Source: Candidatus Latescibacterota bacterium (GTDB lineage: Bacteria > Latescibacterota > UBA2968 > GCA-2709665). Taken from it: a stretch of 64,000 bases of DNA. Position 1 is the stretch's first letter, and each line of letters opens with the position of its first letter. This document shows positions 15,937 to 28,425 of this stretch, one piece after another. The stretch is taken from the NCBI GenBank assembly GCA_965116875.1, contig OZ220733.1:3281803-3345802 (forward strand), read 5' to 3'. The translations under genes and the position numbers were made by a program. Below the pieces are notes generated by a model that searched no databases, had not been told where the DNA came from, and was given only the letters and a program-made list of their open reading frames with translations.

Positions 15937-16475
15937 GACTATGTAGTCCTCTTCCGCGCGGTGATTCAGCCAGATGCGACCACGGCTGGTCGCCAAGCGA
16001 ATTTCTTGGCCGGGATTGAACTGAGTCGTGCCCTATGAGAGTCCATAGACTCGGCCGATACCAAAATAAGTGGAAGAGATCGAACTGAGAGCCAGATATT
16101 GTGTGGTCGGCTTCGGGCAAGAGCTGATTCGTGAAAACGCTACAATGGGATAAGAAAGAAAACGGTCCGGAGGACTCGCATTGAGTTTTGGATCGTTTGA
16201 TAGAGTGACAAACGCCTTCGAATCATTTCGACAGCTGGGTCTATACCTACTGCGCTACTATGGTAGTGTGCTCCGCTCTCAAGGGTCAATTGGGTTGAAA
16301 TCTTCGTGCTGTGTGCGAAAACTTGACAACCGCTGGTCGGCATCATATCTTCAGTTAAATTACAACAGATAACGGAACTTACAAGCATGCAACAGGCCTA
16401 GTTCGGAAAAATCTAAGGCTTGTGCGTTACGATTGGTATGCAGATGTCCCGATTTGCATTGGATGGAGGATTAGT

Positions 16476-17567
16476 ATGAGCGACCAAGATGAACAACTAA
16501 TCCAACACATCGTGGATATTCGCAATAGACTTAGTCAGGGCGAATACGACAGTGAGGCGGCCGTTAGTAACGGTGTTGTCAAGCGGCTGCTCGAGGCGGT
16601 CGGTTGGCCACGGTATGATCAGCAGGTCGTGCGCCATGAGTTCCCGATTGAAACCAGAAAGGTCGACTTCGCGCTCTGTGACCCACCCGGTGAGCCTCGT
16701 GTCTTGATAGAAGTGAAGGCAGTGGGTTCGGCCGATCAGAAAGGAGAAGACCAACTCTTCCAATATTGCTTTCGTAGAGGTGTAAAACTAGCAATCCTCA
16801 CGGACGGACGCACCTGGAAGTTCTATTTTCCGTACGGCGGAGGAGAATATAGTGATAGGCTGTTTCGCAGTTTGGACATTGCTGCCGAGGACGATACCAC
16901 AACTGCTGAGACGTTTATGTGGTTTCTCGCCATCGATGCTGTCAAGTCGGGTGTCACATTTGATAGATGTGAGGAGGCGTATGCAGAATGCCAGTCTCAG
17001 CGCAGAGCGGCCGAAGCATTTGGTTCTGTATGGAATTCCCTGCTTTGTGGATCCGATAAAGGACTCGTGGACATATTTGCCAGAAAAGTCGAAGAAGACA
17101 CTGGAATTCGACCGAAACAACAAACGGTTGTCGAGTTTATAAGGAGGCAAGCCACACAACGATCTGCGGAAACGCACGAATTGACGGGCGGCCCTTCCCA
17201 AAGTGAAACCAGCACAATCCCCTCCTCTCCGTTTTATCGTCTGAACGGTATCACGGTAAATGGTCGGACTGCAAGGGATGTCTATGTCGGAATCTTTCGG
17301 AAATTTGCAGAACAAGACACCAACTTCTGCCAGCGTTATGATAGCACTCAAAAAAAGGGTGGCAAGCGTCTCCAACTTGCGAGGCGCGCGGAGGACCTGT
17401 ATCCTGCGGGTTCTAAGTTAGCCCAAAAGGAAGCCTGCGAATTGCCAGGCGGATGGTGGCTGGCGACCAATCTCGATAACGATCAGAAGAAGAAGCGAAT
17501 TCAACGTGCATGCGACGTGATGGGAATTAAGTACGGACGCGAATTAATCGTTTCCCTATCCAAATAG
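16476..17567 (+). CDS. PD-(D/E)xK nuclease-fold protein (type I restriction R-subunit N-terminal-like domain) with an uncharacterised C-terminal half
   Basis: Track ORF 16422..17567; likely ATG at 16476 (MSDQDEQ). SEAAVSNGVVKRLLEAVGW...RKVDFAL...PRVLIEVKAVG...GEDQLFQY...LAILTDGRTWKFY matches the HSDR_N-type D...ExK pattern from memory. Confidence 0.6.
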   Translation: MSDQDEQLIQHIVDIRNRLSQGEYDSEAAVSNGVVKRLLEAVGWPRYDQQVVRHEFPIETRKVDFALCDPPGEPRVLIEVKAVGSADQKGEDQLFQYCFRRGVKLAILTDGRTWKFYFPYGGGEYSDRLFRSLDIAAEDDTTTAETFMWFLAIDAVKSGVTFDRCEEAYAECQSQRRAAEAFGSVWNSLLCGSDKGLVDIFARKVEEDTGIRPKQQTVVEFIRRQATQRSAETHELTGGPSQSETSTIPSSPFYRLNGITVNGRTARDVYVGIFRKFAEQDTNFCQRYDSTQKKGGKRLQLARRAEDLYPAGSKLAQKEACELPGGWWLATNLDNDQKKKRIQRACDVMGIKYGRELIVSLSK

Positions 17568-17665
17568 CTTCTGAGCAGATCTGTGCGCCTGGCAAACGGT
17601 TCTTGCTAAAGGACCATTCTGATTCACTTTACTCAGGTCACGACTCGTGCAGCGAATCGTCAACG

Positions 17666-18130
17666 ATGAATCTCAGATTCTATGTGGACCCTGAAACAGG
17701 TTCCATTCACATTTACAGACATGGTGTCGAGGAACGTGAAGTCGAAGACGCAATTAGGGTGCGGGGCGAAGTCCGACCTAGAGGGGAGGGATCGCGCGTT
17801 GCAATTGGACGGACTCGCGGAGTCGATATCTCCGACCGATCGATGCGCCGGGACCCCGAACCAAACTGTGCTTATGTCATTACCGCCTACGAGTTGATAG
17901 GTAAACGGCTAATTGCTCTATCGCAGGCGGATGAGAAGGCGAGAAAGATGAGGAACGCCAACAGGTTTCCGGATCGTTGGGACGAGGACCGTGTCCGACG
18001 CCTTCTGGATCATTACGAATCACAGACAGAAGACGAGACAGCGGCGGAAGATGAAGCGGTATTGGAGGATCCAGACAAGACGCTGATGGAAATACCCAAG
18101 AAAATCAGCAAGAATCCAAAAATGACTTAA
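17666..18130 (+). CDS. Degenerate toxin-antitoxin fusion ORF (small toxin-like N-half, antitoxin-like C-half with a replaced C-terminus)
   Basis: MNLRFYVDPETGSIHIYRHGVEEREVEDA...CAYVITAYELIGK resembles a small TA toxin family; I cannot name the family securely. It continues in frame into MRNANRFPDRWDEDRVRRLLDHYESQTEDETAAEDEAVLEDP..., which is homologous to the 26068..26268 product. Confidence 0.45.
   Translation: MNLRFYVDPETGSIHIYRHGVEEREVEDAIRVRGEVRPRGEGSRVAIGRTRGVDISDRSMRRDPEPNCAYVITAYELIGKRLIALSQADEKARKMRNANRFPDRWDEDRVRRLLDHYESQTEDETAAEDEAVLEDPDKTLMEIPKKISKNPKMT
17978..18100. repeat. 123-bp imperfect direct repeat, left copy (inside the antitoxin-like coding sequence)
   Basis: Manual alignment to 26098..26220 gives 109/123 identical, no indels, including a 32-bp identical run cattacgaatcacagacagaagacgagacagc. 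Confidence 0.9.
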
Positions 18131-18490: not shown

Positions 18491-20215
18491 CTATTTCGCC
18501 TTTAGCCGTAACCATTCGGACTCAGTTAGTCCAACGCGCGATAATTCCCTTCCGAATTGCTCAGCGGCACGTTGCGCATGTTCCGTTTTCAGCTCGGCTA
18601 TCCACTCATAGCCCCTCTCTTCATCATCCCAAAAGACAAATCGATTTCTGTCGTCCTTCGTGGCGCAAAGCGCGTCGTCGTGAGACTTGAAGTGCGAAAC
18701 GAAAACACACGACACCTTGGGACTATGCAATAGTCGGATAAATTCGCCCATGGAGTCGTTGACGCAATGTGTAATTTTACGACCGTCTTCGGCTACACTT
18801 AAGACATTAAATGCAAACGGTTGGCTCTTGCCTTCAATTCTTACACTGTCACACACTGGTTGGAGGCAAAGCAAGTAACGGTTATCGCCGGCCAACTCCC
18901 TAACAATCACGCCCAAATGCAATAATCTCGGAGAATCTCCATATTGTATTCTTTGACTCATTAAGGATGCGAGTTTCTCATTGCATTGAGCTGTTTGACC
19001 ATTGCCCAATAGGTACTCGACTAACTTTATGCGTCCATTTCTGTCATCCTTCCAGATGGGATTGCCGGATTCACCTTGTTCAACTAGACGCCCTACGCGG
19101 CTCCCTCTGAAACTAGAATACTCATACTGAAGATTGGGCCCGTTGCAGAACACATCTTTGACAAAATTGAGACCGTTAGCTCCTTCGCCGATCTTCAATT
19201 CGGCATTTGTGTTTTCTTCCCAGGTTTTCTCGCACCAATCTTCAAGGATTTTTCTTACGCAAACAGCTGATCCTAGAGGCAAATCCCCCAATGTGTCAAT
19301 TAACACGGAATTGAGTTCATCGGTCAATAGGGTTACGATCTGCCGGAAAGCTTCGTCAGGAAGCAGAAGGGCACGGTGAGCCAGAAAGGGTGCATCCAAT
19401 TCTTGGTTGAATCGTGTTAGAATGCGGCGACTATTGTCGCGAATATTCGCGATCCCTCGTAGCACGATTCCCTGCAAGATACCGTTGGTAAGCTGGGAGA
19501 ACTCGCGTATTGTACGCTCAGCCAATTCTGCCTCCGGCACTCGTTCATTTGAAAAATTCGGTTGAGTCACACTTCGAGGTTTTCCGAGTACAACGACCCT
19601 GGCACACTCGGTCGTAAGCACAGGTTGCTCGGATTCACAATCTACACACAGCTGGTGACGATTGAACAAGGCATCGGATATCTCTTTCGCGATTTTCTGG
19701 AGTTCTCTTTCCAGAGTGTAGACAAGCACGAGGCGCAATTGATTCGGTAAATCTGCCTGACTTAGCTTAATGAGGCTTCCAATGAGCTTGATGGCCTTAC
19801 TACCAGATGCATCTCCGAGATCCCAGTCAACAATTGTAACGTCAGCACTCGAGCATAAACCATAGACTTCTGACTCTTCATCGAAAGATGCATTTGCTGG
19901 AGGCTGATACAGCGAACAGATAATCCGCCTCTCGGCGAAACTATTCTGTACATCACGAAATGACGCCTCTTCAAGCTCCTCAGGCATTTGCCCGGCTTCA
20001 TCTTCATTGCCACTCGCTTCGAATGAAGATGTTGGGCTTTTCACCGCTGGCAGGCGTCCCGCTTCCTTTGGATCATCCAGTGGCGTGGGCGGACCCCCAA
20101 TCGCGTCGTCGTATATTCGATCATCAACCAAAACTACAGTCTGGAGATATTGCTCGGCAGAATCATAAACAAACTGTTTGAATGCGGAATTCTTGCTTTC
20201 AGTCATTTTCTTCAT
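18491..20215 (-). CDS. Receiver (REC)-like domain protein with a ~350-aa C-terminal region of unknown function
   Basis: Track ORF 18491..20242. Likely start is ATG 20215 or 20206, overlapping the upstream stop. REC landmarks in track numbering: VVLVDD (36-41), TIVDWDL (Asp139, codon 19828..19826), LVLVYT (Thr176), VVLGKP (Lys221). There is an acidic/Pro-rich insert between beta1 and beta2. I recognise no motif after about aa 230. Confidence 0.7.
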   Translation of the reverse strand: MKKMTESKNSAFKQFVYDSAEQYLQTVVLVDDRIYDDAIGGPPTPLDDPKEAGRLPAVKSPTSSFEASGNEDEAGQMPEELEEASFRDVQNSFAERRIICSLYQPPANASFDEESEVYGLCSSADVTIVDWDLGDASGSKAIKLIGSLIKLSQADLPNQLRLVLVYTLERELQKIAKEISDALFNRHQLCVDCESEQPVLTTECARVVVLGKPRSVTQPNFSNERVPEAELAERTIREFSQLTNGILQGIVLRGIANIRDNSRRILTRFNQELDAPFLAHRALLLPDEAFRQIVTLLTDELNSVLIDTLGDLPLGSAVCVRKILEDWCEKTWEENTNAELKIGEGANGLNFVKDVFCNGPNLQYEYSSFRGSRVGRLVEQGESGNPIWKDDRNGRIKLVEYLLGNGQTAQCNEKLASLMSQRIQYGDSPRLLHLGVIVRELAGDNRYLLCLQPVCDSVRIEGKSQPFAFNVLSVAEDGRKITHCVNDSMGEFIRLLHSPKVSCVFVSHFKSHDDALCATKDDRNRFVFWDDEERGYEWIAELKTEHAQRAAEQFGRELSRVGLTESEWLRLKAK

Positions 20216-23159
20216 TCCAATACAAATAGAATAGAACCCCATCGTCAGGACTTCTATTCAGGTCTAGAGTAAGGGTCATCCCTTCCTTATTTAATACCCT
20301 TTTTGAGATGTAAAGGCCCAGGCCTCGGCCTCGTGGTTTGCGCGAGAATCCCTTTTCAAAAATGGACTCAGCATCTCGACGTGGGATTGGCGGACCGTTG
20401 TTCCCAATGCAATAGGCACTGTCGGTGCAATCTAACTGAATCAGACGTTCACCGGGCTTGTCCTTAAGCCAGAAAATGAAGTTATCCAAAAGATTGACAA
20501 ATACCGGATAAATTGTTGATGGGTACGTGCGAACTATACTATCAACGAAATTCTGTGTCGCATCCAGCTGGATTCTATGACGTTCAAGCCGTACACCGAA
20601 TAGCGCACGAACATAGTAGACGACTTCCTTTCCAGTTATGTCGATTTGTTGACGATATAGTCGCCGCTGTAGAGGCGTAAATAGATTCAAATGAGCATCT
20701 AGATGTTCAAAATTCGTCCTGATTCCGCGGTAGATGGGCTGCAGCCCGTCATTGGCCTTGGCCCACGTTCCGAGTTCTCTCAGATCTCTGCGTATCATCT
20801 TGATTACAGCCTCGAATTCATGGTTTATTACCGCAATCGCAAGTCCCATTTGGACTAGCTCTTCATCCGTATCAGCCTTTTCTTGTAGGGCGTAAAGTTC
20901 AGTTTCCAGGGCTTCTGCGATGTCGAGTTGGCTAATGTCCGTTCCTTCATTAATCCCGTCAGCAATACCTGTCAACATTTCGCGAACACCTTCAAGTCTG
21001 CCAGTGTTCCTTAAGGCTACAGCATCGATTCGTTGTTGGTAGTCTGACCTTATGTCCTCGATCTGCTTTGGCTGTAGATCGCTGAGGTCGCTGTGAGCAA
21101 GATTTAACTCGATTTCTGCAATTACGTTACGCAATTCCCGCAGGGATGCATTAGTCGCACTAATAGAAGCGCGTCGTGCATCTCCTGCTGCTTGCCGTAA
21201 CGCGCTCGATTCAATGCGTAAAGCTGTGTTCTGCGTATCGGCGGCATTTTGAATGAGCTCTTGAATGCGTCGACGTTGGTCAATATGGATATTCGCTATT
21301 TCCGCCGTTGATACAAGTGATTCCCCCACTTGCTTTGCAAAAGGAGCAAAGACATCAGCTTCAAGTCTGTCGCGTTCCCTCTGATACGCTTCCCAATCGC
21401 CGGTAAGCCTCTTGGTCAAACCGACGCCTCGGGGCCGAGTTATTGAATACTTCGCCCGCATCTCTTCGAGCTCCCGATTGGCTTCCCGTTCTGTGTCAAG
21501 AAGCTCGGCGGATGCAATGTCAGGATCACCATTCTCAGATGCTGTTTTCATCCTATCTTGTATATGTTGCAGAAGTTCCGCGATTTCGAATTCGGGTAAA
21601 GCATCTTGTGTTTTGGCAAAAAACATTTCAAGTGCAGTGGCAAGCCTGGCTCGCTTTGCAGTTGTCTGTTTTTCTCTATTCCTGCGGGCACGTTCCAACC
21701 GATCGAGTTCGTCCTTGCGTTCGTGAAAATAGTCTCCTTGGGGCGCTTCTTTGCGAAAAAAATCGGCCGCCAACTGAATGAATACGTTTTCCAACACGCT
21801 TTTGAACTGCTTGTAAGCCTTGTTTTTTTGGAAACCTTCACGCCCCGCTTTTTCTTTTAGTGCCGCGTTGTTCTCTTTCGTGAGGCACACCGCACCATAT
21901 ATCCGCCTATACGAAAAGAAGTAGTAACCCATACCTTTGTTTCGGCGCAACTCGATATCGAGCCAATCTATATCCGAATTGCCGTAAGGGAGGATTCGAA
22001 TCATATCCCGGTAAACGTAGAGCCCGCCGATCCTGTCTAGTTTTTCATTCAGCCTAGTCCAGTCTTCAGGATCCGCCATGCTTTCCCGTTGAATACCTTG
22101 CAAATAGCCAAATTCCAGCTGGAATGGGCCACATGCCGTCGGCTTGCCGCCGCCATCCTTCCATGAGACAATATGATCAGGGAATTCTTGGTCATAAACC
22201 CTTACCTTTCCCCTAAATTGGCCGTATTCATCAATATTGCCACTGACGAACTGATCGGACAGAGCTAAGTCTTCGTTGGTAAAAAACTCATTTGGACCGA
22301 TCAGATCCTCATGCGATGTATCTGTAGGCCAAAAACGGAATGCTGTTTCTAAAGGCAGAGGGTTATCCACCCCAAACGTCCGATTGCAGAAACCTAGAAG
22401 ACACTTGCTGAATTCGTTGGTTCCGTCCGATTGCTCTGACTTGATGTCCGCAAGAATAGTTTCGTCAGCAGGTGCAATATAAAAATGTGTGCCGCTCTCA
22501 CAATTAGCGAGCGAGAGACCCTCAATAGTTCGCTCAAAATTTCGCGGATCGACCTGAAAGCCGGCAATATCCGAAAGAATGCTCGAAAGGTCACACCATG
22601 GGAAATCTCTTTGAAGTTGATTGACATTGGTAGCGTTCTCGTTCAATAAATCGACGATATCCTCATTTGCCGGGAGATTGCCTTCTGGAACGCATCTGAT
22701 AGGGATTTCAATATCCTCTAAATTAACGGATGGTTGTCCGAATAGCCCCCAATGAACATAACACATGACGAGATTGCCGCGATGCCCTTCTCGTGCGGAC
22801 CTCGTTAGCACAAGAACTTGCCGCCCAAGGAATGCGATCGCAAGTCGCCCGATTCCCTTCTCTCCCATGATAGCGCGCTCTGGCTTGTCAGCCGGCCGGA
22901 ACTCCGTACCCTGCGGCGATCTGACCTTACTATCCGTACCAAGGACCAACCATTTCGACTCGAATTCCTCACGCGACATTCCAACCCCATCATCACGAAT
23001 GACTAGGAGCGAATCAGAACCGAAGAAGTCCACTTCAACATGATCTGCATAGGCATCGTGAGCATTCTTAAATAGCTCATTAATGGCGGTGGAGGCGTCG
23101 GCGATTTGCTGCCTTCCCAGCATATCAACCGCTCGCGCTTTTGTTCGGAATCTAGCCAT
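20199..23159 (-). CDS. Hybrid GHKL protein: N-terminal MutL/MORC/Hsp90-type ATPase module, coiled coil, then histidine-kinase DHp + CA core
   Basis: 986 aa. N-terminal Bergerat motifs NELFKNAHDA (27-36), DDGVGM (56-61), GEKGIGRL (99-106). Charged heptad-like region at about 480-770. H-box GLAIAVINHEFEAVI (His780, codon 20822..20820). N-box VFVNLLDNFIFW, GNNGPPI, IFEKGFS, GRGLGLYIS at 886-951. No TM segment seen. Confidence 0.8.
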   Translation of the reverse strand: MARFRTKARAVDMLGRQQIADASTAINELFKNAHDAYADHVEVDFFGSDSLLVIRDDGVGMSREEFESKWLVLGTDSKVRSPQGTEFRPADKPERAIMGEKGIGRLAIAFLGRQVLVLTRSAREGHRGNLVMCYVHWGLFGQPSVNLEDIEIPIRCVPEGNLPANEDIVDLLNENATNVNQLQRDFPWCDLSSILSDIAGFQVDPRNFERTIEGLSLANCESGTHFYIAPADETILADIKSEQSDGTNEFSKCLLGFCNRTFGVDNPLPLETAFRFWPTDTSHEDLIGPNEFFTNEDLALSDQFVSGNIDEYGQFRGKVRVYDQEFPDHIVSWKDGGGKPTACGPFQLEFGYLQGIQRESMADPEDWTRLNEKLDRIGGLYVYRDMIRILPYGNSDIDWLDIELRRNKGMGYYFFSYRRIYGAVCLTKENNAALKEKAGREGFQKNKAYKQFKSVLENVFIQLAADFFRKEAPQGDYFHERKDELDRLERARRNREKQTTAKRARLATALEMFFAKTQDALPEFEIAELLQHIQDRMKTASENGDPDIASAELLDTEREANRELEEMRAKYSITRPRGVGLTKRLTGDWEAYQRERDRLEADVFAPFAKQVGESLVSTAEIANIHIDQRRRIQELIQNAADTQNTALRIESSALRQAAGDARRASISATNASLRELRNVIAEIELNLAHSDLSDLQPKQIEDIRSDYQQRIDAVALRNTGRLEGVREMLTGIADGINEGTDISQLDIAEALETELYALQEKADTDEELVQMGLAIAVINHEFEAVIKMIRRDLRELGTWAKANDGLQPIYRGIRTNFEHLDAHLNLFTPLQRRLYRQQIDITGKEVVYYVRALFGVRLERHRIQLDATQNFVDSIVRTYPSTIYPVFVNLLDNFIFWLKDKPGERLIQLDCTDSAYCIGNNGPPIPRRDAESIFEKGFSRKPRGRGLGLYISKRVLNKEGMTLTLDLNRSPDDGVLFYLYWNEEND

Positions 23160-24267
23160 TTTTTAGATCCGCTGTCTTGACGTGGTCGTTGAAATGTAGA
23201 CCGAATGCTTTTGCAACAGGTACTGGAACCGCATTACCTATCTGACGCGCCATGGATGCCAGTGAACCTGTAAACTCGAAACTATCTGGAAATCCCTGAA
23301 GGCGGGCTGCCTCGCGTACTGATATGGCACGGTCTTGCTTTGGGTGGCCGAATCTTCCGTTTGAATAACTGATGCAGCGCGTCGTTAAACCGGGTGCAGG
23401 CTCGTCCCACGCAAGTCGTGTGTAACAGTCCGAATGGCCATTGTAGCGTTTTCCGTTTTCCTTCAAGGTATAGCATTTCGGCAGGAGCGACTCGGGCCAG
23501 TCCCGACGCCCGTTTTCGTGGGTCTTCCTGATCCGCTTTAGATTCAGATCGGAAAGTGCAGCAGCGCGGTGATTCGGGTATTTTTGTTCATCTGGATGCT
23601 CTGTGCCTTGCTTAATAGTTGGAAGATCTTCTATCGCATCCCTAACCGTTCTATACGCTACGTTTCGATCTCGTCCGTGAGTTGGCTCAGGAAGTGCGAT
23701 CTTACCAAGAAGACTTGCCACTAGAACTAGCCTTCTGCGAACCTGCGGCACTCCATAGTCCTGCGCGAAGATTATACCGTAATCGATATTGTAACCGTCT
23801 CTATCCAATTGATCGACCAAATGTGAAAACGGGTTGTGATTCTCGACGGACACACTTCGAAAACCAGGGACATTTTCAACGAATACCAATTCTGGCAAAC
23901 AATCATGGACAATCGACGAGAAATGTCCCAAAAGACCATGACGATTGTCTTCGGATAACTCCTGCTTAGAATTCGTTTTTTGTTTAGTGAAGGGCTGACA
24001 AGGAGGACAGCCACAGAACAATTTCACCTCGGATTCGCAGCTATAGTAGGCATTTATCCGTTCTGCACTTACTACTTCAATCGGCTCGTTGATCACCGAA
24101 GCACCTTTAAAATTCTTCTTGAATGTACCGACAGCATCAGGACACGAATCAACTGCAAGCGCGTGTTCAATTCCGGATTCGTGAAAACCTAAGCTGGTTC
24201 CGCCGCAACCGGAAAAGAAGTCGAATACTCGAATGGGTATATTAGGGGGCATTTTCGAGCTTGTCAC
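23152..24267 (-). CDS. dcm: DNA (cytosine-5)-methyltransferase
   Basis: 371 aa. Motif I FDFFSGCGGTSLGF, motif IV GCPPCQPFT, motif VI FVENVPGF, motif VIII QDYGVPQVRRRLVLV, motif X GNAVPVPVA. Confidence 0.95.
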   Translation of the reverse strand: MTSSKMPPNIPIRVFDFFSGCGGTSLGFHESGIEHALAVDSCPDAVGTFKKNFKGASVINEPIEVVSAERINAYYSCESEVKLFCGCPPCQPFTKQKTNSKQELSEDNRHGLLGHFSSIVHDCLPELVFVENVPGFRSVSVENHNPFSHLVDQLDRDGYNIDYGIIFAQDYGVPQVRRRLVLVASLLGKIALPEPTHGRDRNVAYRTVRDAIEDLPTIKQGTEHPDEQKYPNHRAAALSDLNLKRIRKTHENGRRDWPESLLPKCYTLKENGKRYNGHSDCYTRLAWDEPAPGLTTRCISYSNGRFGHPKQDRAISVREAARLQGFPDSFEFTGSLASMARQIGNAVPVPVAKAFGLHFNDHVKTADLKNG

Positions 24268-24281
24268 ACTGATTCCTGCCT

Positions 24282-24761
24282 TTAGGGCAGTTGAGCGGGC
24301 ATCGGACCAGAGATTTCAATTGTTTCACGGGCCGACATTAGGAATCGACCAAGCCGAATGCACACTCGACCGAGTGCCTCGTGTCGGTCGATGCCTGGTC
24401 TGCGCACAGAACATTCCCAGATGATAGCAACTCGCCAGCCAAGGCATCGTAGTTCGCAAATAGATTTCAAATCTCGCGCTCTATTGTCTTCTAGTTTCTT
24501 GCGCCACCAGTTTGCTCGTGTATGCGGTATCTTGGATCTCGCGCATCCATGATTGTGCCAGAAGCAGCCGTTAACGAATATGACCACCGAGTATTTTGGC
24601 AGCACTATGTCCGGCTTTCCAGGCAAATCTTTGCGATGCAGCCGGTAGCGAAAGCCTTGGGCGAAGAGACTCCGCCGTACTTCAGTTTCAAGCTTGCTAT
24701 TCTTGCCACCAACCGCCGACATCATCCTGCTTCGAGTTTGTTTGTCAACGAAGTCAGTCAA
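24282..24761 (-). CDS. vsr: Very-short-patch repair endonuclease
   Basis: 159 aa. SRMMSAVGGKNSKLETEVRRSLFAQGFRYRLH..LPGKPDIVLPKY.VVIFVNGCFWHNHGC...NWWRKKLEDNRARD...GWRVAIIWEC is the classical Vsr pattern. Sits 14 nt upstream of dcm. Confidence 0.9.
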   Translation of the reverse strand: MTDFVDKQTRSRMMSAVGGKNSKLETEVRRSLFAQGFRYRLHRKDLPGKPDIVLPKYSVVIFVNGCFWHNHGCARSKIPHTRANWWRKKLEDNRARDLKSICELRCLGWRVAIIWECSVRRPGIDRHEALGRVCIRLGRFLMSARETIEISGPMPAQLP

Positions 24762-24982: not shown

Positions 24983-25906
24983 TTATTTTATCCTTAATTC
25001 GAATGCCAGCGGTTCCAATTTGTCTGGCTGGATTGTCCACGGACTTACTAACACGAGGTTTCCGCCCCTTCCGATCGGTGGATCAGTACTTCGCGTTAGT
25101 TTAATGTCCGACACGACTGCAAGTAGTGTATTCGGCGATTTCGCACGAGCGAGAGCGACCTCGTTTCTGGTAACGATGATCTTTTCGCCTTTGCCGGTCG
25201 TCCCTTTAACTTCAACAAACAGCTCGTCACCATTCGAATAGCAGATAAAGTCACAAGATTCCGTTGCCGAAACGTCTTTTACGTTGGGCCAATCGATCGA
25301 CAGGTGATCTTGAACAACGTGCATTGCTCGCAGCTCGATCGCCCGACGTTCTTGCGCATTGAGATGTCGGCCCTGTCCTTGGCTCTTGCGAAGTGGGCGC
25401 ACGATTGGGCTAATCTCCTCATCAGAAACAGAGATGATTGGATGTTGGGCTAACATCGATGCCGCCTCATGGACATTAGTCGGGAGACCGGAGACATAGA
25501 ACCTCATACGCTTATTGTTATTGCCGGGAAATCTTGCGCTTGGTTTTTGACCAATTGAACGTTGTGACCTGCACAGAGCCCTTCGTAACGCTTGAGAATC
25601 AATTGAGCGAATGTCAATTGGGAATGAATCGACCGCTAACCTCCGGTTTTCTCTCGATAAACCCATTCGTTGTGTGGTCTTTGTATCGACCACGGCATCC
25701 TCGAGGAAACAGCCGCTTCGCGCTAGGCGGCTTAAGAGCAACTCAACCCCTTGGTTATATTCGGCATTTCTCTCGTTCGGTCCACCGATCGAACCCCCTC
25801 GTGATTCTACCACAACGGAAGTCTCTCCGTCTGCAAACTCAACCGAAAACTGCGCCTTTATCGGATTTCCGATTCTGTCGCAGACCGTCTGGAGGCCGCT
25901 TGTCAT
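24983..25906 (-). CDS. DUF3883-like (PD-(D/E)xK-type) nuclease-domain protein with an uncharacterised N-terminal domain; candidate restriction or effector nuclease
   Basis: 307 aa. C-terminal ERRAIELRAMHVVQDHL...SCDFICYSNGDELFVEVKGTTGKGEKIIVTRNEVALARAKSPNTLLAVVSDI matches the D...EVK...T.NE pattern of DUF3883-type domains from memory. I do not recognise the N-terminal ~190 aa. Confidence 0.55.
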   Translation of the reverse strand: MTSGLQTVCDRIGNPIKAQFSVEFADGETSVVVESRGGSIGGPNERNAEYNQGVELLLSRLARSGCFLEDAVVDTKTTQRMGLSRENRRLAVDSFPIDIRSIDSQALRRALCRSQRSIGQKPSARFPGNNNKRMRFYVSGLPTNVHEAASMLAQHPIISVSDEEISPIVRPLRKSQGQGRHLNAQERRAIELRAMHVVQDHLSIDWPNVKDVSATESCDFICYSNGDELFVEVKGTTGKGEKIIVTRNEVALARAKSPNTLLAVVSDIKLTRSTDPPIGRGGNLVLVSPWTIQPDKLEPLAFELRIK

Positions 25907-26067: not shown

Positions 26068-26268
26068 GTGAAATATGCGTCCAGATTTCCGAAAGGCTGG
26101 GACGAGGACCGCGTCCGACGCCTCCTGAAACATTACGAATCACAGACAGAAGACGAGACAGCTGCGGAGGATGAAGCGGTAATAGAGGATCCAAGCCAGA
26201 CACTTATGGCAATACCCAAGGCTCTGGTTCCTTCAGTACAAGCGCTTCTGGCGCAACGCGACGAGTGA
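26068..26268 (+). CDS. Small antitoxin-like protein (orphan; no toxin gene adjacent)
   Basis: 66 aa, GTG start with AGGAG 8 nt upstream. RFPKGWDEDRVRRLLKHYESQTEDETAAEDEAVIEDPSQTLMAIPKALVPSVQALL is homologous to the C-half of 17666..18130. Confidence 0.5.
   Translation: MKYASRFPKGWDEDRVRRLLKHYESQTEDETAAEDEAVIEDPSQTLMAIPKALVPSVQALLAQRDE
26098..26220. repeat. 123-bp imperfect direct repeat, right copy
   Basis: See 17978..18100. Confidence 0.9.
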
Positions 26269-26305: not shown

Positions 26306-26965
26306 TCAACCTCCCGTGCCGTCAGACAATCGCTGTCTGTATCTGATTAAATCCTCGCGGGTTATGGCGTCCGGCGGGACCAATTGATACTGTTTCTCCG
26401 CGACGATTCGTATTTCGTCACCGTCCTCCTCAAATTCCATCAGTGCAATAACATCCTGCTGCATGAATTGCGCGCCGATGGGCCGGCAGATCAGGTCTGG
26501 TAATTTGTCCGCACAAAGCGCGATGTCCTGCTCAATCTGAATCCTGCTGAGTCTATCGTTACCACCTTTGGCCTGGACGGGTATCACGTAATGCGAACCA
26601 CTCTTGTCAACACCCACGTAGATTTCGTCGGTTTCGACCTGACCCAACTTCTGCACGGTCGTACGGAGATGGTTTTGCAGTGAGTAACACGCGATACCAA
26701 GGAAGATGTCGATAAGGCGATTGTATCGCACCCGGGCCAGTACAGCCTGTTCATCACCAAACGCATATTTCGCGATGATTCCCGGTGTGGAGTCCGGCAC
26801 TTTGGTCACCGAGAGATTCGGATTCGGCGTGAGCGGATTATCGGTGGCGAGTTCAAACCTGTATTTGCCTCTGCCCGCGCCCCGGATGATCCACGTTTCT
26901 TTGTCCGGTGCCGTACTCCGAATACTGTCGGGGAGTTGTGTCCTGTAGCGGAAACTGTAGACCAC
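26306..26965 (-). CDS. Candidate type II restriction endonuclease (partner of the adjacent methyltransferase)
   Basis: Track ORF (GTG 26965). Possible PD-(D/E)xK-like core ETDEIYVGVD...VIPVQAKGG. The frame stays open and protein-like for 50 more codons upstream (ISTTNRYSAIIEAIFQARYQPGQREVDFVREDIETTASELNIDLPKNLGDV), back to TGA 27121..27119, so the real start is probably near 27115 (see findings). Confidence 0.5.
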   Translation of the reverse strand: MVYSFRYRTQLPDSIRSTAPDKETWIIRGAGRGKYRFELATDNPLTPNPNLSVTKVPDSTPGIIAKYAFGDEQAVLARVRYNRLIDIFLGIACYSLQNHLRTTVQKLGQVETDEIYVGVDKSGSHYVIPVQAKGGNDRLSRIQIEQDIALCADKLPDLICRPIGAQFMQQDVIALMEFEEDGDEIRIVAEKQYQLVPPDAITREDLIRYRQRLSDGTGG

Positions 26966-27132: not shown

Positions 27133-28425
27133 TCAATCGCCCGGCCATTCCAGCGTCACAACCTCTTCTCTGAGCTGTTCGCCCGTTACCGTTGAAGGCC
27201 TGGTTCGAAACAGATCGATCCCGGTGACATTGTAGCCCTGCGATTTGGCGATGCCGGCCAGGAGTTCGCCCGTTCTGATCATCACCCGAAGATAGGATGC
27301 CTGGTCACCCACCACGTAAGCGAGCTTTGCACCCGGTCTCAATGCCGGCCTGAGAGATGCGAAATGCTTCGCCATCCCCCCGAAATATAGCAGAGTGACC
27401 CGGGAGTACTGGCGCTCGAAACCTGATGTCTTGCCCAGAGAGACTCGGCGTCTTTCAATTTCATCCGCCAGATTTCGTATTGCGAGATTGTCCGCGATCT
27501 CCAGGTCGTCTGTGTCGGCTTTGTATACACCGCGAGTGTTGGACCTGACCAGGTTTTGTTTCAACATCCTCAATTCTTGCCTGTTCCTGATCATGCCAAG
27601 GATGACCGACTCCAGACGGGTCGTCCTGGTGTAATCCTTCTCGTTGGGATATGGCGGGGAAGTAATTACGAAATCTACCGAACCCGGTTTCAGGATGTTT
27701 TCGACGCTCCGAGCGTCTGCATTGAAAATCCGGCTGTCGACTCGTGCCCTGTCACCATATTGCCGAATGTCTCGGGCAGTCGCCCGGATGCATTCGAGCC
27801 ACGCGTCCACGACCGGTGCATCATATTTGATTTTCCCGACCCCGACTTCCGGCCCGAATTTGAGATTGCTGATGCGGTTCACGAGCGCGTTGGCGAGACA
27901 GAGGCGTCCGTAGCGCTGAAAATGATGATCCCCCAACCTGTCGATTGCATTCAGAAGAACGAGTGCCTTGTGCAGGGGACGGGGGCTGATGGAGTCCTTC
28001 AACAGGATTTTCGTCCTTTCATCAGGAAGTTGTTTCAGTACTGTTTTCGAATTTCCATTTTCGGCGAATAGCGGAAGATCTTCCCATTCACCAAAGCCGT
28101 TATTGTCCAGCGTTTTCTTCGTGGACATCGCTACTTCTTCCGCGTACTCGAGCAACTCCCTGTGATTCACAGTCCAGTCCACCTTTACCGAACTTGCGAA
28201 ATACGCCATCGGATTCGGCTCGATTCCGATGCTGCCGATTCCGAGCTTTTTGCACTCAACGGCCGTGGTCCCCGTCCCGCAAAACGGATCAAGGACGGTG
28301 TGGGATGTTCCAACTTCGAACCTTTCGAGATACTCACGGACCAGATGAGGCGGAAATGACAGCACGAACCGGTACCAGTCATGAACTGCTCTGTCTTCGG
28401 TTCTGAGTTTGTTTAAATCCTTCAT
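27133..28425 (-). CDS. Site-specific DNA methyltransferase (N4-cytosine or N6-adenine), SPPY motif
   Basis: 430 aa. AdoMet motif VLDPFCGTGTTAVE near the N-terminus and catalytic VDFVITSPPYPNEKDY about 210 aa later (alpha-type order, target-recognition region between them). Confidence 0.85.
   Translation of the reverse strand: MKDLNKLRTEDRAVHDWYRFVLSFPPHLVREYLERFEVGTSHTVLDPFCGTGTTAVECKKLGIGSIGIEPNPMAYFASSVKVDWTVNHRELLEYAEEVAMSTKKTLDNNGFGEWEDLPLFAENGNSKTVLKQLPDERTKILLKDSISPRPLHKALVLLNAIDRLGDHHFQRYGRLCLANALVNRISNLKFGPEVGVGKIKYDAPVVDAWLECIRATARDIRQYGDRARVDSRIFNADARSVENILKPGSVDFVITSPPYPNEKDYTRTTRLESVILGMIRNRQELRMLKQNLVRSNTRGVYKADTDDLEIADNLAIRNLADEIERRRVSLGKTSGFERQYSRVTLLYFGGMAKHFASLRPALRPGAKLAYVVGDQASYLRVMIRTGELLAGIAKSQGYNVTGIDLFRTRPSTVTGEQLREEVVTLEWPGD

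Follow-up and report, generated by a model that had tools for sequence, protein, structure and literature searches.

The minus-strand gene at 18491..20206 of the window (the whole 64,000-nucleotide stretch analysed, positions 3,281,803 to 3,345,802 of contig OZ220733.1 from the Candidatus Latescibacterota assembly GCA_965116875.1) encodes a response-regulator-like protein, which we read, with confidence about evenly balanced, as the output module of a methylase-linked two-component defence cassette. With the same evenly divided confidence, the protein would be the response-regulator-like half of a two-component-like pair, hard-wired to a C5 cytosine DNA methyltransferase of the Dcm type in a mobile, translationally coupled defence-island cassette. 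Directly established are the domain identities, the intact phosphorelay residues, the coupling of the genes, the co-evolution of kinase and receiver, the linkage to Dcm and the defence-island context. By its sequence, the window gene is a new member of the already described PF19192 family; PF19192 and PF19191 (HEF_HK) were defined by Bellieny-Rabelo, Pretorius and Moleleki (Genome Biol Evol 2021; PMC8011034). The analysis in that paper does not extend to the output half of the protein, ~350 residues at the C-terminus (PMC8011034).

The cassette genes and the receiver features are listed here; residue numbers of the receiver protein follow throughout the 583-amino-acid (aa) product counted from the first ATG of the minus-strand open reading frame (ORF) 18491..20242.

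18491..20206, minus strand: response-regulator-like gene, 571 aa from M13 (longest ORF to 20242)
19574..20149, minus strand: divergent receiver domain, PF19192 Response_reg_2, residues 32-223 (Pfam match)
19964..20119, minus strand: insert between strand 1 and helix 1, residues 42-93 (~52 aa), Pro/Glu/Ser-rich
20120-20125, minus strand: codons of D40/D41
19826-19828, minus strand: codon of D139, the phospho-acceptor
19715-19717, minus strand: codon of T176
19580-19582, minus strand: codon of K221
20199..23159, minus strand: partner kinase, 986 aa, with a MORC-like ATPase and a histidine-kinase core
23152..24267, minus strand: C5 cytosine DNA methyltransferase (Dcm type), with PCQ and ENV motifs visible in the translation
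24282..24761, minus strand: Vsr very-short-patch repair endonuclease, an accessory gene

The minus-strand order is vsr, dcm, kinase, receiver, and the four genes lie within an island of low GC content (46-50% versus ~60% elsewhere). The receiver gene likely starts at M13 (20206), which is the first conserved column among relatives and the start used in public gene calls; an identical 571-aa protein beginning at M13 is recorded in public assemblies. An earlier, model-made reading of the window (the original prediction) had carried the gene to 20215, which is M10, but the family alignment and the public calls favour M13. Its remark that the gene start overlaps the kinase stop holds whichever start is taken; with M13, the kinase TGA and the receiver start share 8 nucleotides (nt) in ATGACTGA. 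The dcm stop and the kinase start likewise overlap by 8 nt, in ATGGCTAG.

The receiver domain, judged from its residues, is divergent yet intact. The PF19192 match spans residues 32-223 and almost the whole model (positions 1-177 of 180), scoring 111.9 bits (cut-off 27) with an E value of 5e-32. When the window protein was aligned with 53 diverse relatives (24-61% identity), D139 and T176 (as T or S) were found in all 54 sequences, D40 in 53/54, and D41 and K221 in 52/54 each, so that the receiver landmarks noticed in the original prediction are borne out. Comparison of the family profile with five canonical receivers by hhalign gave an E value of 1.1e-4 and a probability of 56%, and placed D139 on D57 of CheY and T176 on T87 of CheY. 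The insert at residues 42-93 is probably disordered. It had been singled out as a Pro/Glu-rich peculiarity, and it does exist, but it proves to be a family-wide trait: in the family, a median of 59 residues separates the DD pair from helix 1 (F102), and the window protein has 60. Only its acidity is peculiar to this ortholog, the insert being Lys-rich in relatives. Long loop extensions of PF19192 receivers were already noted in the 2021 description, in which the receiver fold was taken from RaptorX models (PMC8011034).

The association of receiver, kinase and methylase is conserved across great phylogenetic distances. A survey with one genome per species yielded 69 loci in many phyla, including Proteobacteria, Bacteroidota, Actinomycetota, Acidobacteriota and Verrucomicrobiota. 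In tblastn searches, the order dcm-kinase-receiver was kept in nearly every locus not interrupted by a contig end, and in ~30 loci vsr either directly followed the receiver gene or preceded dcm. When the flanking ORFs were clustered, the only recurrent families were Dcm (47 loci) and Vsr (29 loci); a third, an uncharacterised protein of ~260 aa, was present in 5 loci, and no separate nuclease gene conserved with the cassette was found among the clustered ORFs. Thus dcm, kinase and receiver form the conserved core, to which vsr may or may not be added. The 2021 paper had reported adjacency of the kinase and receiver genes in 91.6% of cases over 644 regions, a C5 methylase upstream, enrichment of restriction-modification (R-M) domains nearby and a relationship of the kinase to paraMORC ATPases (PMC8011034).

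DNA matching the kinase gene was found in 197/5,426 complete E. coli genomes (~3.6%), nearly always on the chromosome. A plasmid collection gave one distant match and a phage collection none. In uropathogenic E. coli NU14 (locus L074, NZ_CP019777.1 4846874-4852566; locus tags B0908_RS24885-24875), a three-gene cassette lies between a cdiA/cdiI locus and insertion sequence (IS) remnants; RefSeq labels its products 'DNA cytosine methyltransferase', 'ATP-binding protein' and 'response regulator receiver domain'. Over its full length, the NU14 receiver protein shares 25% identity with the window protein, and it has the same motifs. The suggestion that the output region might represent a new family is not borne out, given the publication of the family in 2021 (PMC8011034), its presence in E. 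coli and the size of the family found with the C-terminal profile (below).

Four loci with only the C-terminal motif (L017, L058, L063 and L064) were considered as alternative architectures but are truncated remnants that either neighbour integrase or IS-type genes or are interrupted by insertions of several kb; decay of the cassette is therefore frequent. In Candidatus Methylobacter oryzae (L039 7223-10891), a 1,214-aa ORF joins the kinase in frame with the C-terminal module, the receiver domain being missing; this ORF represents either a natural fusion, in which the phosphorelay would be bypassed, or a pseudogene created by deletion. A Desulfomonilaceae metagenome-assembled genome (L003 / L011 3601-6124) carries a variant cassette, the kinase of which has only 247 aa, with HEF_HK and HATPase_c but without the MORC-like module; this kinase follows a Toprim/DnaG-zinc-ribbon gene and has no Dcm gene nearby.

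The partner kinase can be accounted for along its length, which matters for the assignment of an output. Its parts are as follows.

21720-23159, minus strand: MORC-like GHKL and transducer module, kinase residues 1-480
20865-21719, minus strand: coiled coil, a variable region of 285 residues
20820-20822, minus strand: codon of H780 in the HEF_HK DHp domain (PF19191)
20217-20519, minus strand: HATPase_c CA domain (PF02518)

Pfam matches the kinase with PF13589 (HATPase_c_3; E 1.1e-13), PF19191 (E 2.7e-27) and PF02518. The GHKL motifs E28/N32, DDGxGM and GEKGIGRL are invariant, and conservation extends to H780-E-F, the phospho-acceptor motif, and to the N and G boxes in the CA domain. A model of residues 1-480 built with 60 homologues reached a predicted local distance difference test score (pLDDT) of 87.5 and a predicted template-modelling score of 0.88. 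Foldseek searches of the PDB with this model returned SMCHD1 (6mw7, E 1.4e-11), MORC2 (including its DNA complex), MORC3, MORC4 and the N-terminal plus middle domains of Hsp90, in alignments spanning ~490-540 columns (gaps included) with E values of 1e-11 to 1e-9. The model thus indicates that residues 1-480 are a MORC/SMCHD1/Hsp90-type GHKL and transducer module, wholly accounted for. A nuclease hidden in this part was ruled out: the region aligns throughout with GHKL and transducer modules, leaving no room for one, and residues 481-765 are a predicted coiled coil. Since the kinase consists of the MORC module, the coiled coil, DHp and CA, the C-terminal module of the receiver protein is the only globular part of the cassette that lacks an assignment. 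The N-terminus of the kinase also matches the GHKL part of the BbrUII/HgiDII restriction enzymes (NCBIfam NF050001, E 5.8e-17; PADLOC REase_II, E 7.9e-11), and the only PADLOC matches on either protein, REase_II and MzaB, both fall on the kinase ATPase domain. Although a methyltransferase is present, no recognisable endonuclease domain was found in the kinase or the receiver protein.

Public gene calls start the kinase at its own M13 (974 aa). However, residues 2-12 (ARFRTKARAVD; residues 1-12 are encoded by 23124-23159) are conserved among relatives, which makes the ATG at 23159, the one that gives the 8-nt overlap with dcm, the probable true start. This segment probably serves as the strap at the N-terminus of the GHKL dimer.

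The anatomy of the output region was derived from a model of residues 225-583 (66 homologues, mean pLDDT 75) read together with deep alignments. Four parts can be distinguished.

19268..19540, minus strand: conserved helical part, residues 235-325, with F248, G254, D283, H289 and E309 conserved
18959..19267, minus strand: hypervariable, mostly helical subdomain, residues 326-428, indel-rich
18542..18958, minus strand: conserved beta-barrel and helix, residues 429-567 (model and alignments)
18494..18541, minus strand: C-terminal tail SRVGLTESEWLRLKAK, residues 568-583, with R569, G571, E576 and R579 invariant

The first part consists of long helices, and its model confidence is low when it is folded without the receiver domain. 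The second is predicted with confidence to be folded (pLDDT 86-95) and is at the same time the most variable and indel-rich stretch of the protein, with a mean pairwise identity of 0.18 versus 0.40-0.46 in the neighbouring parts. The third is modelled as eight strands followed by a helix; its invariant residues are G444, C459, C464, D465, R468, F476, W547 and L551, which include an invariant C459-x4-C464-D465-x2-R468 motif (CxxxxCDxxR) at 18839-18868. The motifs of the barrel are YLLCLQPxCDSVRL and WIAELKxxHAQR, in which 'HAQR' is conserved. The tail, SRVGLTESEWLR (RVGLTESEW), is the most conserved segment of the receiver protein and is unpacked in the isolated model; it is a candidate docking helix. 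A profile of barrel plus tail found 1,343 representatives of 50% identity clusters (992 at E<=1e-10) among 1.84 billion. Among the top 150, all 96 full-length proteins carry a receiver domain of the same type ahead of the module; so far, the C-terminal module occurs in this receiver architecture only (96 full-length representatives).

Searches with the C-terminal ~350 aa agree with the original prediction that this region holds no recognisable motif: Pfam, NCBIfam and PADLOC gave no match, nor did PDB sequences yield anything significant by phmmer or profile search, and Pfam searches with 53 relatives at E<=10 likewise returned nothing in the C-terminal region. A Foldseek search with the predicted structure, a step proposed with the original prediction, found nothing at E<=1e-3 in PDB or BFVD. 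The only geometry-consistent matches for the barrel, in these two independent libraries, were MazF/PemK toxins. PDB entries from E. coli, Deinococcus, Klebsiella and S. aureus gave target-normalised template-modelling (TM) scores of 0.51-0.58, probabilities up to 0.96 and a best E value of 0.068; the best match was 5cqy_B (E 0.068, probability 0.96, TM 0.58), and MazF of Deinococcus, Klebsiella and S. aureus scored 0.54-0.58. The BFVD match was a PemK/MazF toxin of a Lactobacillus phage (TM 0.55, root-mean-square deviation 4.6), with a best E value in that library of 0.47. At the level of sequence, none of the 53 family members matched the Pfam PemK (PF02452) or CcdB models at E<=10, and hhalign of the barrel profile against EndoA/MazF/Kid and against CcdB gave probabilities below 1%. 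The MazF comparison rests on a thin profile of three sequences, because B. subtilis EndoA, used as a database query, brought up nothing below 94% identity. No MazF homologues were found in the fetched loci. Because the fold match is not significant and sequence gives no support, the 'MazF-like barrel' stays a lead from modelling and not an assignment.

Other candidate identities were considered and set aside. The best PDB profile hit was RAG1, at a non-significant E value of 0.21 and with no RNase H-like fold match; in this alignment, CxxxxCDxxRLE is laid over the RAG1 Cys pair in CTLCDTTRLE, which we take to be the zinc-binding C727 and C730. A PD-(D/E)XK reading of D465 with E550-x-K552 was dropped because E550 varies and the two elements are ~85 residues apart. 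The HEPN motif Rx4-6H is absent, and the Foldseek matches include no fold of a 5-methylcytosine (m5C) reader (SRA, EVE or PUA-like).

The variable subdomain has a history of its own. Pairwise identities were compared by Spearman correlation over 37 complete cassettes. Kinase and receiver regions vary together (rho 0.66-0.88), whereas Dcm is coupled more loosely to them (rho 0.29-0.50), its target-recognition region giving rho 0.29-0.41 with kinase or receiver; the variable subdomain correlates least with that recognition region (rho 0.29). In a group of eight loci, the kinases are 83-93% identical in residues 131-480, except for that of L018 at 68-71%. One allele of the output module is found in L013, L014, L015, L016 and L018, and another in L019, L022 and, more loosely, L027. 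Identity of the variable part is 0.23-0.34 between the alleles and 0.46-0.82 within them. The same group contains at least two types of Dcm, ~52% identical to each other. These comparisons show that the variable part recombines independently of both the kinase and the Dcm type. Such independent exchange fits diversification under selection, either for evasion of an inhibitor or for recognition of a variable target, and it fits equally well whether the module is an effector or a recognition/adaptor element.

Based on these data, we infer the signal, the phosphotransfer and the effector activity of the pair as follows. The MORC-like ATPase clamp would report a state of the DNA, most plausibly DNA that lacks the m5C mark of the cassette or else a DNA structure associated with infection. 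That state would turn on autophosphorylation of the kinase at H780, and the phosphoryl group would then move to D139 of the receiver. Phosphorylation may change the oligomeric state of the receiver protein, or free or unmask its C-terminal module, which would deliver the output, either as a toxic or nucleic-acid-targeting effector or as the recruiter of one. An effector role for the C-terminal module is plausible by elimination. The original prediction had named this region the best candidate for the effector, or for a domain that recruits a partner, if the operon is a defence system. The low-GC island, the second R-M pair within it, the conserved cassette and the elimination of the kinase all speak for that view, though the lack of a catalytic motif and a MazF resemblance below significance do not; the elimination lends it weak, indirect backing.

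Several findings weigh against reading the gene as the output of a methylase-linked defence cassette. No recognisable catalytic motif was found in the C-terminal module, and in the wide family only about ten of its residues are invariant. The receiver-domain family profile found zero receivers among PDB sequences by hmmsearch, and the domain must therefore be considered very divergent. PADLOC-DB has no model for either the receiver protein or the kinase, and no experimental study of any family member was found in the searchable literature. The link to the methylase is also loose in one respect: all four combinations of receiver allele and Dcm type occur in the eight-locus group, with kinases 86-93% identical (residues 131-480), and L059 carries a Dcm 93% identical to that of L013 beside a kinase-receiver pair that is only 20-36% identical. 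Because the same Dcm accompanies divergent pairs, the pair is not tied to one methylase sequence, unlike a classical restriction enzyme. The occurrence of all allele and type combinations, together with the rho of 0.29, also rules out the variable subdomain as a target-recognition domain, that is, a specificity element matched to the methylase.

What the C-terminal module does can be read in three other ways. One minor but real possibility is that it is a DNA endonuclease of undescribed fold. The pair would then be a phospho-regulated, ATP-dependent restriction enzyme, in which the MORC-like motor finds unmethylated DNA and licenses cutting, much as in the GHKL-containing enzymes of the HgiDII/BbrUII type that work with m5C methylases. 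The cassette holds a methylase, and often vsr, but no recognisable restriction gene, and paraMORC ATPases have been proposed to work with nucleases in R-M systems (PMC2292703). D465, R468, E576 and R579, together with the two invariant cysteines, could form a metal site. The match of the kinase N-terminus to BbrUII/HgiDII points the same way, although matches to that enzyme family are confined to the ATPase domain (residues 9-125). There is, however, no signature or fold match of PD-(D/E)XK, HNH, GIY-YIG, PLD or Toprim type, and kinase and receiver do not follow the Dcm target-recognition region, as would be expected of a sequence-matched enzyme. We think it rather unlikely that the module is instead a non-catalytic recognition or adaptor element that binds DNA, a phage protein, the kinase or the methylase. 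The exchange of a confidently folded hypervariable subdomain between near-identical systems is typical of recognition surfaces, the invariant, unpacked tail resembles a docking helix, and no catalytic signature was found. MutL, a GHKL relative, stimulates Vsr. On this reading the pair would regulate the linked Dcm/Vsr functions, or else another, unlinked system. A regulatory role, including such an unlinked target, was the speculation of Bellieny-Rabelo et al. (PMC8011034). On the other hand, no helix-turn-helix or other known DNA-binding fold was found with Pfam or Foldseek, Vsr is missing from many loci, the variable part does not follow the Dcm type, and one would not expect a pair with regulation as its sole role to be carried across phyla as a tight, mobile, methylase-linked cassette.

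It seems decidedly unlikely that the barrel is an endoribonuclease like MazF/PemK (or a poison like CcdB), with phosphorylation-driven dimerisation of the receiver building the toxin dimer; at the same low level of confidence, the cassette would then act by methylation-referenced abortive infection and not by DNA-cutting restriction. MazF/PemK proteins of several species are the only geometry-consistent matches in both Foldseek libraries, the order of the barrel strands and the helix that follows fit that fold, and no nuclease-type partner gene is conserved in the cassette. None of these matches reaches E 1e-3, though, the profile comparison (with its thin toxin profile) and the PemK/CcdB models were negative, and SH3-like barrels recur by convergence. 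Moreover, C459, C464, D465 and R468 are not known to match catalytic residues of MazF or Kid. A still bolder proposal, and a long shot, is an immune system in which the MORC-like clamp takes Dcm methylation as the mark of self and a His-Asp phosphorelay licenses a receiver-fused toxin, either a MazF-like barrel or a new enzyme centred on Cys, Asp and Arg, with the hypervariable subdomain diversifying under phage pressure.

The low-GC island holds, besides the cassette, a second R-M pair and two PD-(D/E)XK-like genes, and the cassette itself lies between repeats. The features are these.

16422-17567, plus strand, at the island edge: 381-aa protein with an HSDR_N_2-type PD-(D/E)XK nuclease domain and a weak SeqA C-terminal-like match
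17603-18130, plus strand: ORF whose C-terminal third is one repeat copy
17962-18100 and 26082-26220: 139-nt direct repeat, 86% identical
24983-25906, minus strand: 307-aa protein with a C-terminal NOV_C (PD-(D/E)XK-like) domain
26068-26268, plus strand: 66-aa ORF bearing the other repeat copy, beginning 'MKYASRFPKGWDEDRVRRLLKHYESQTEDETAAEDEAV...'
26306-26965 and 27133-28425, minus strand: second, ordinary Type II R-M pair

The direct repeat flanks the whole NOV_C/vsr/dcm/kinase/receiver block and forms the 3' part of two paralogous small ORFs, both of which look like antitoxin-type genes; it may be a trace of how the block was inserted or can be excised. The restriction enzyme of the second R-M pair matches PADLOC REase_II PDLC03404 (E 8.5e-96), and its partner is an N4/N6 DNA methylase. 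The NOV_C protein gives a weak match to a model of Type IV methyl-directed restriction enzymes, and its gene lies upstream of vsr in this genome only, not being kept with the cassette elsewhere. For this reason, the NOV_C gene was ruled out as a missing nuclease or other core component.

The window pair agrees with the published Response_reg_2/HEF_HK pairs (PMC8011034) in its Pfam matches, adjacent genes, upstream C5 methylase and vsr, HATPase_c_3 in the kinase and loop extensions in the receiver. It shows no difference from them at the level of the family; the account of the output region and of the structure of the kinase N-terminus goes beyond the 2021 paper. The closest functional parallel is Detocs (DtcA/DtcB/DtcC; Rousset et al. 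2023), in which a His-Asp phosphorelay activates an immune effector that does not bind DNA (bioRxiv 10.1101/2023.01.24.525353). The window system would follow the same logic, in which a cytoplasmic sensor kinase and a receiver fused to an exchangeable, non-DNA-binding effector serve immunity. The two systems are unrelated in sequence, and none of the PADLOC models for Detocs matches the window proteins. Detocs senses through tetratricopeptide repeats, in contrast to the MORC-like ATPase here; the window system has no third, 'buffer' receiver gene and no PNP effector, and its link to a methylase is obligatory.

The kinase module at residues 1-480 resembles MORC and paraMORC ATPases in its GHKL and transducer parts, with SMCHD1 and MORC2/3/4 as the closest solved relatives, and it shares with paraMORCs the genomic association with Dcm and Vsr (PMC2292703). 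The paraMORC ATPases were proposed as partners of nucleases in R-M systems by Iyer, Abhiman and Aravind in 2008 (PMC2292703), and those described carry or adjoin nucleases, helicases or TIR domains; here, the ATPase is instead joined through a coiled coil to a histidine-kinase core that would signal to the receiver protein. The BbrUII/HgiDII enzymes (NF050001) share an N-terminal GHKL of the same subfamily and an m5C methylase partner, but the similarity is limited to ~115 kinase residues, and the remainder of those enzymes matches neither protein. MazF/PemK/Kid (and CcdB) offer the best, though not significant, structural resemblance to the barrel and its following helix. They differ in showing no profile similarity and in that no antitoxin gene is present, the domain here being embedded in a multidomain protein of 570 aa.

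The finding will be unsurprising to a reader of the 2021 paper, yet the system is well delimited and a good target for experimental work. New here are the anatomy and invariant residues of the output module, the finding that the ATPase module of the kinase leaves no room for a nuclease, and the independence from methylase type. The question is now narrowed to one module and, within it, to C459, C464, D465, R468 and the RVGLTESEW tail, for which E. coli NU14 offers a tractable homologue. The family spans many phyla, sits in defence islands and is absent from the PADLOC catalogue searched. If it is an immune system, two-component phosphotransfer would have been put to use against phages a second, independent time, after Detocs, and for the first time with a MORC-like sensor linked to DNA methylation, which would bear on the bacterial origin of the eukaryotic MORC/SMCHD1 silencers. 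If the output is indeed a toxin released with reference to methylation, MORC ATPases, DNA methylation and two-component signalling would be joined in one defence mechanism, which would provide a prokaryotic model for the reading of epigenetic states by MORC-type ATPases.

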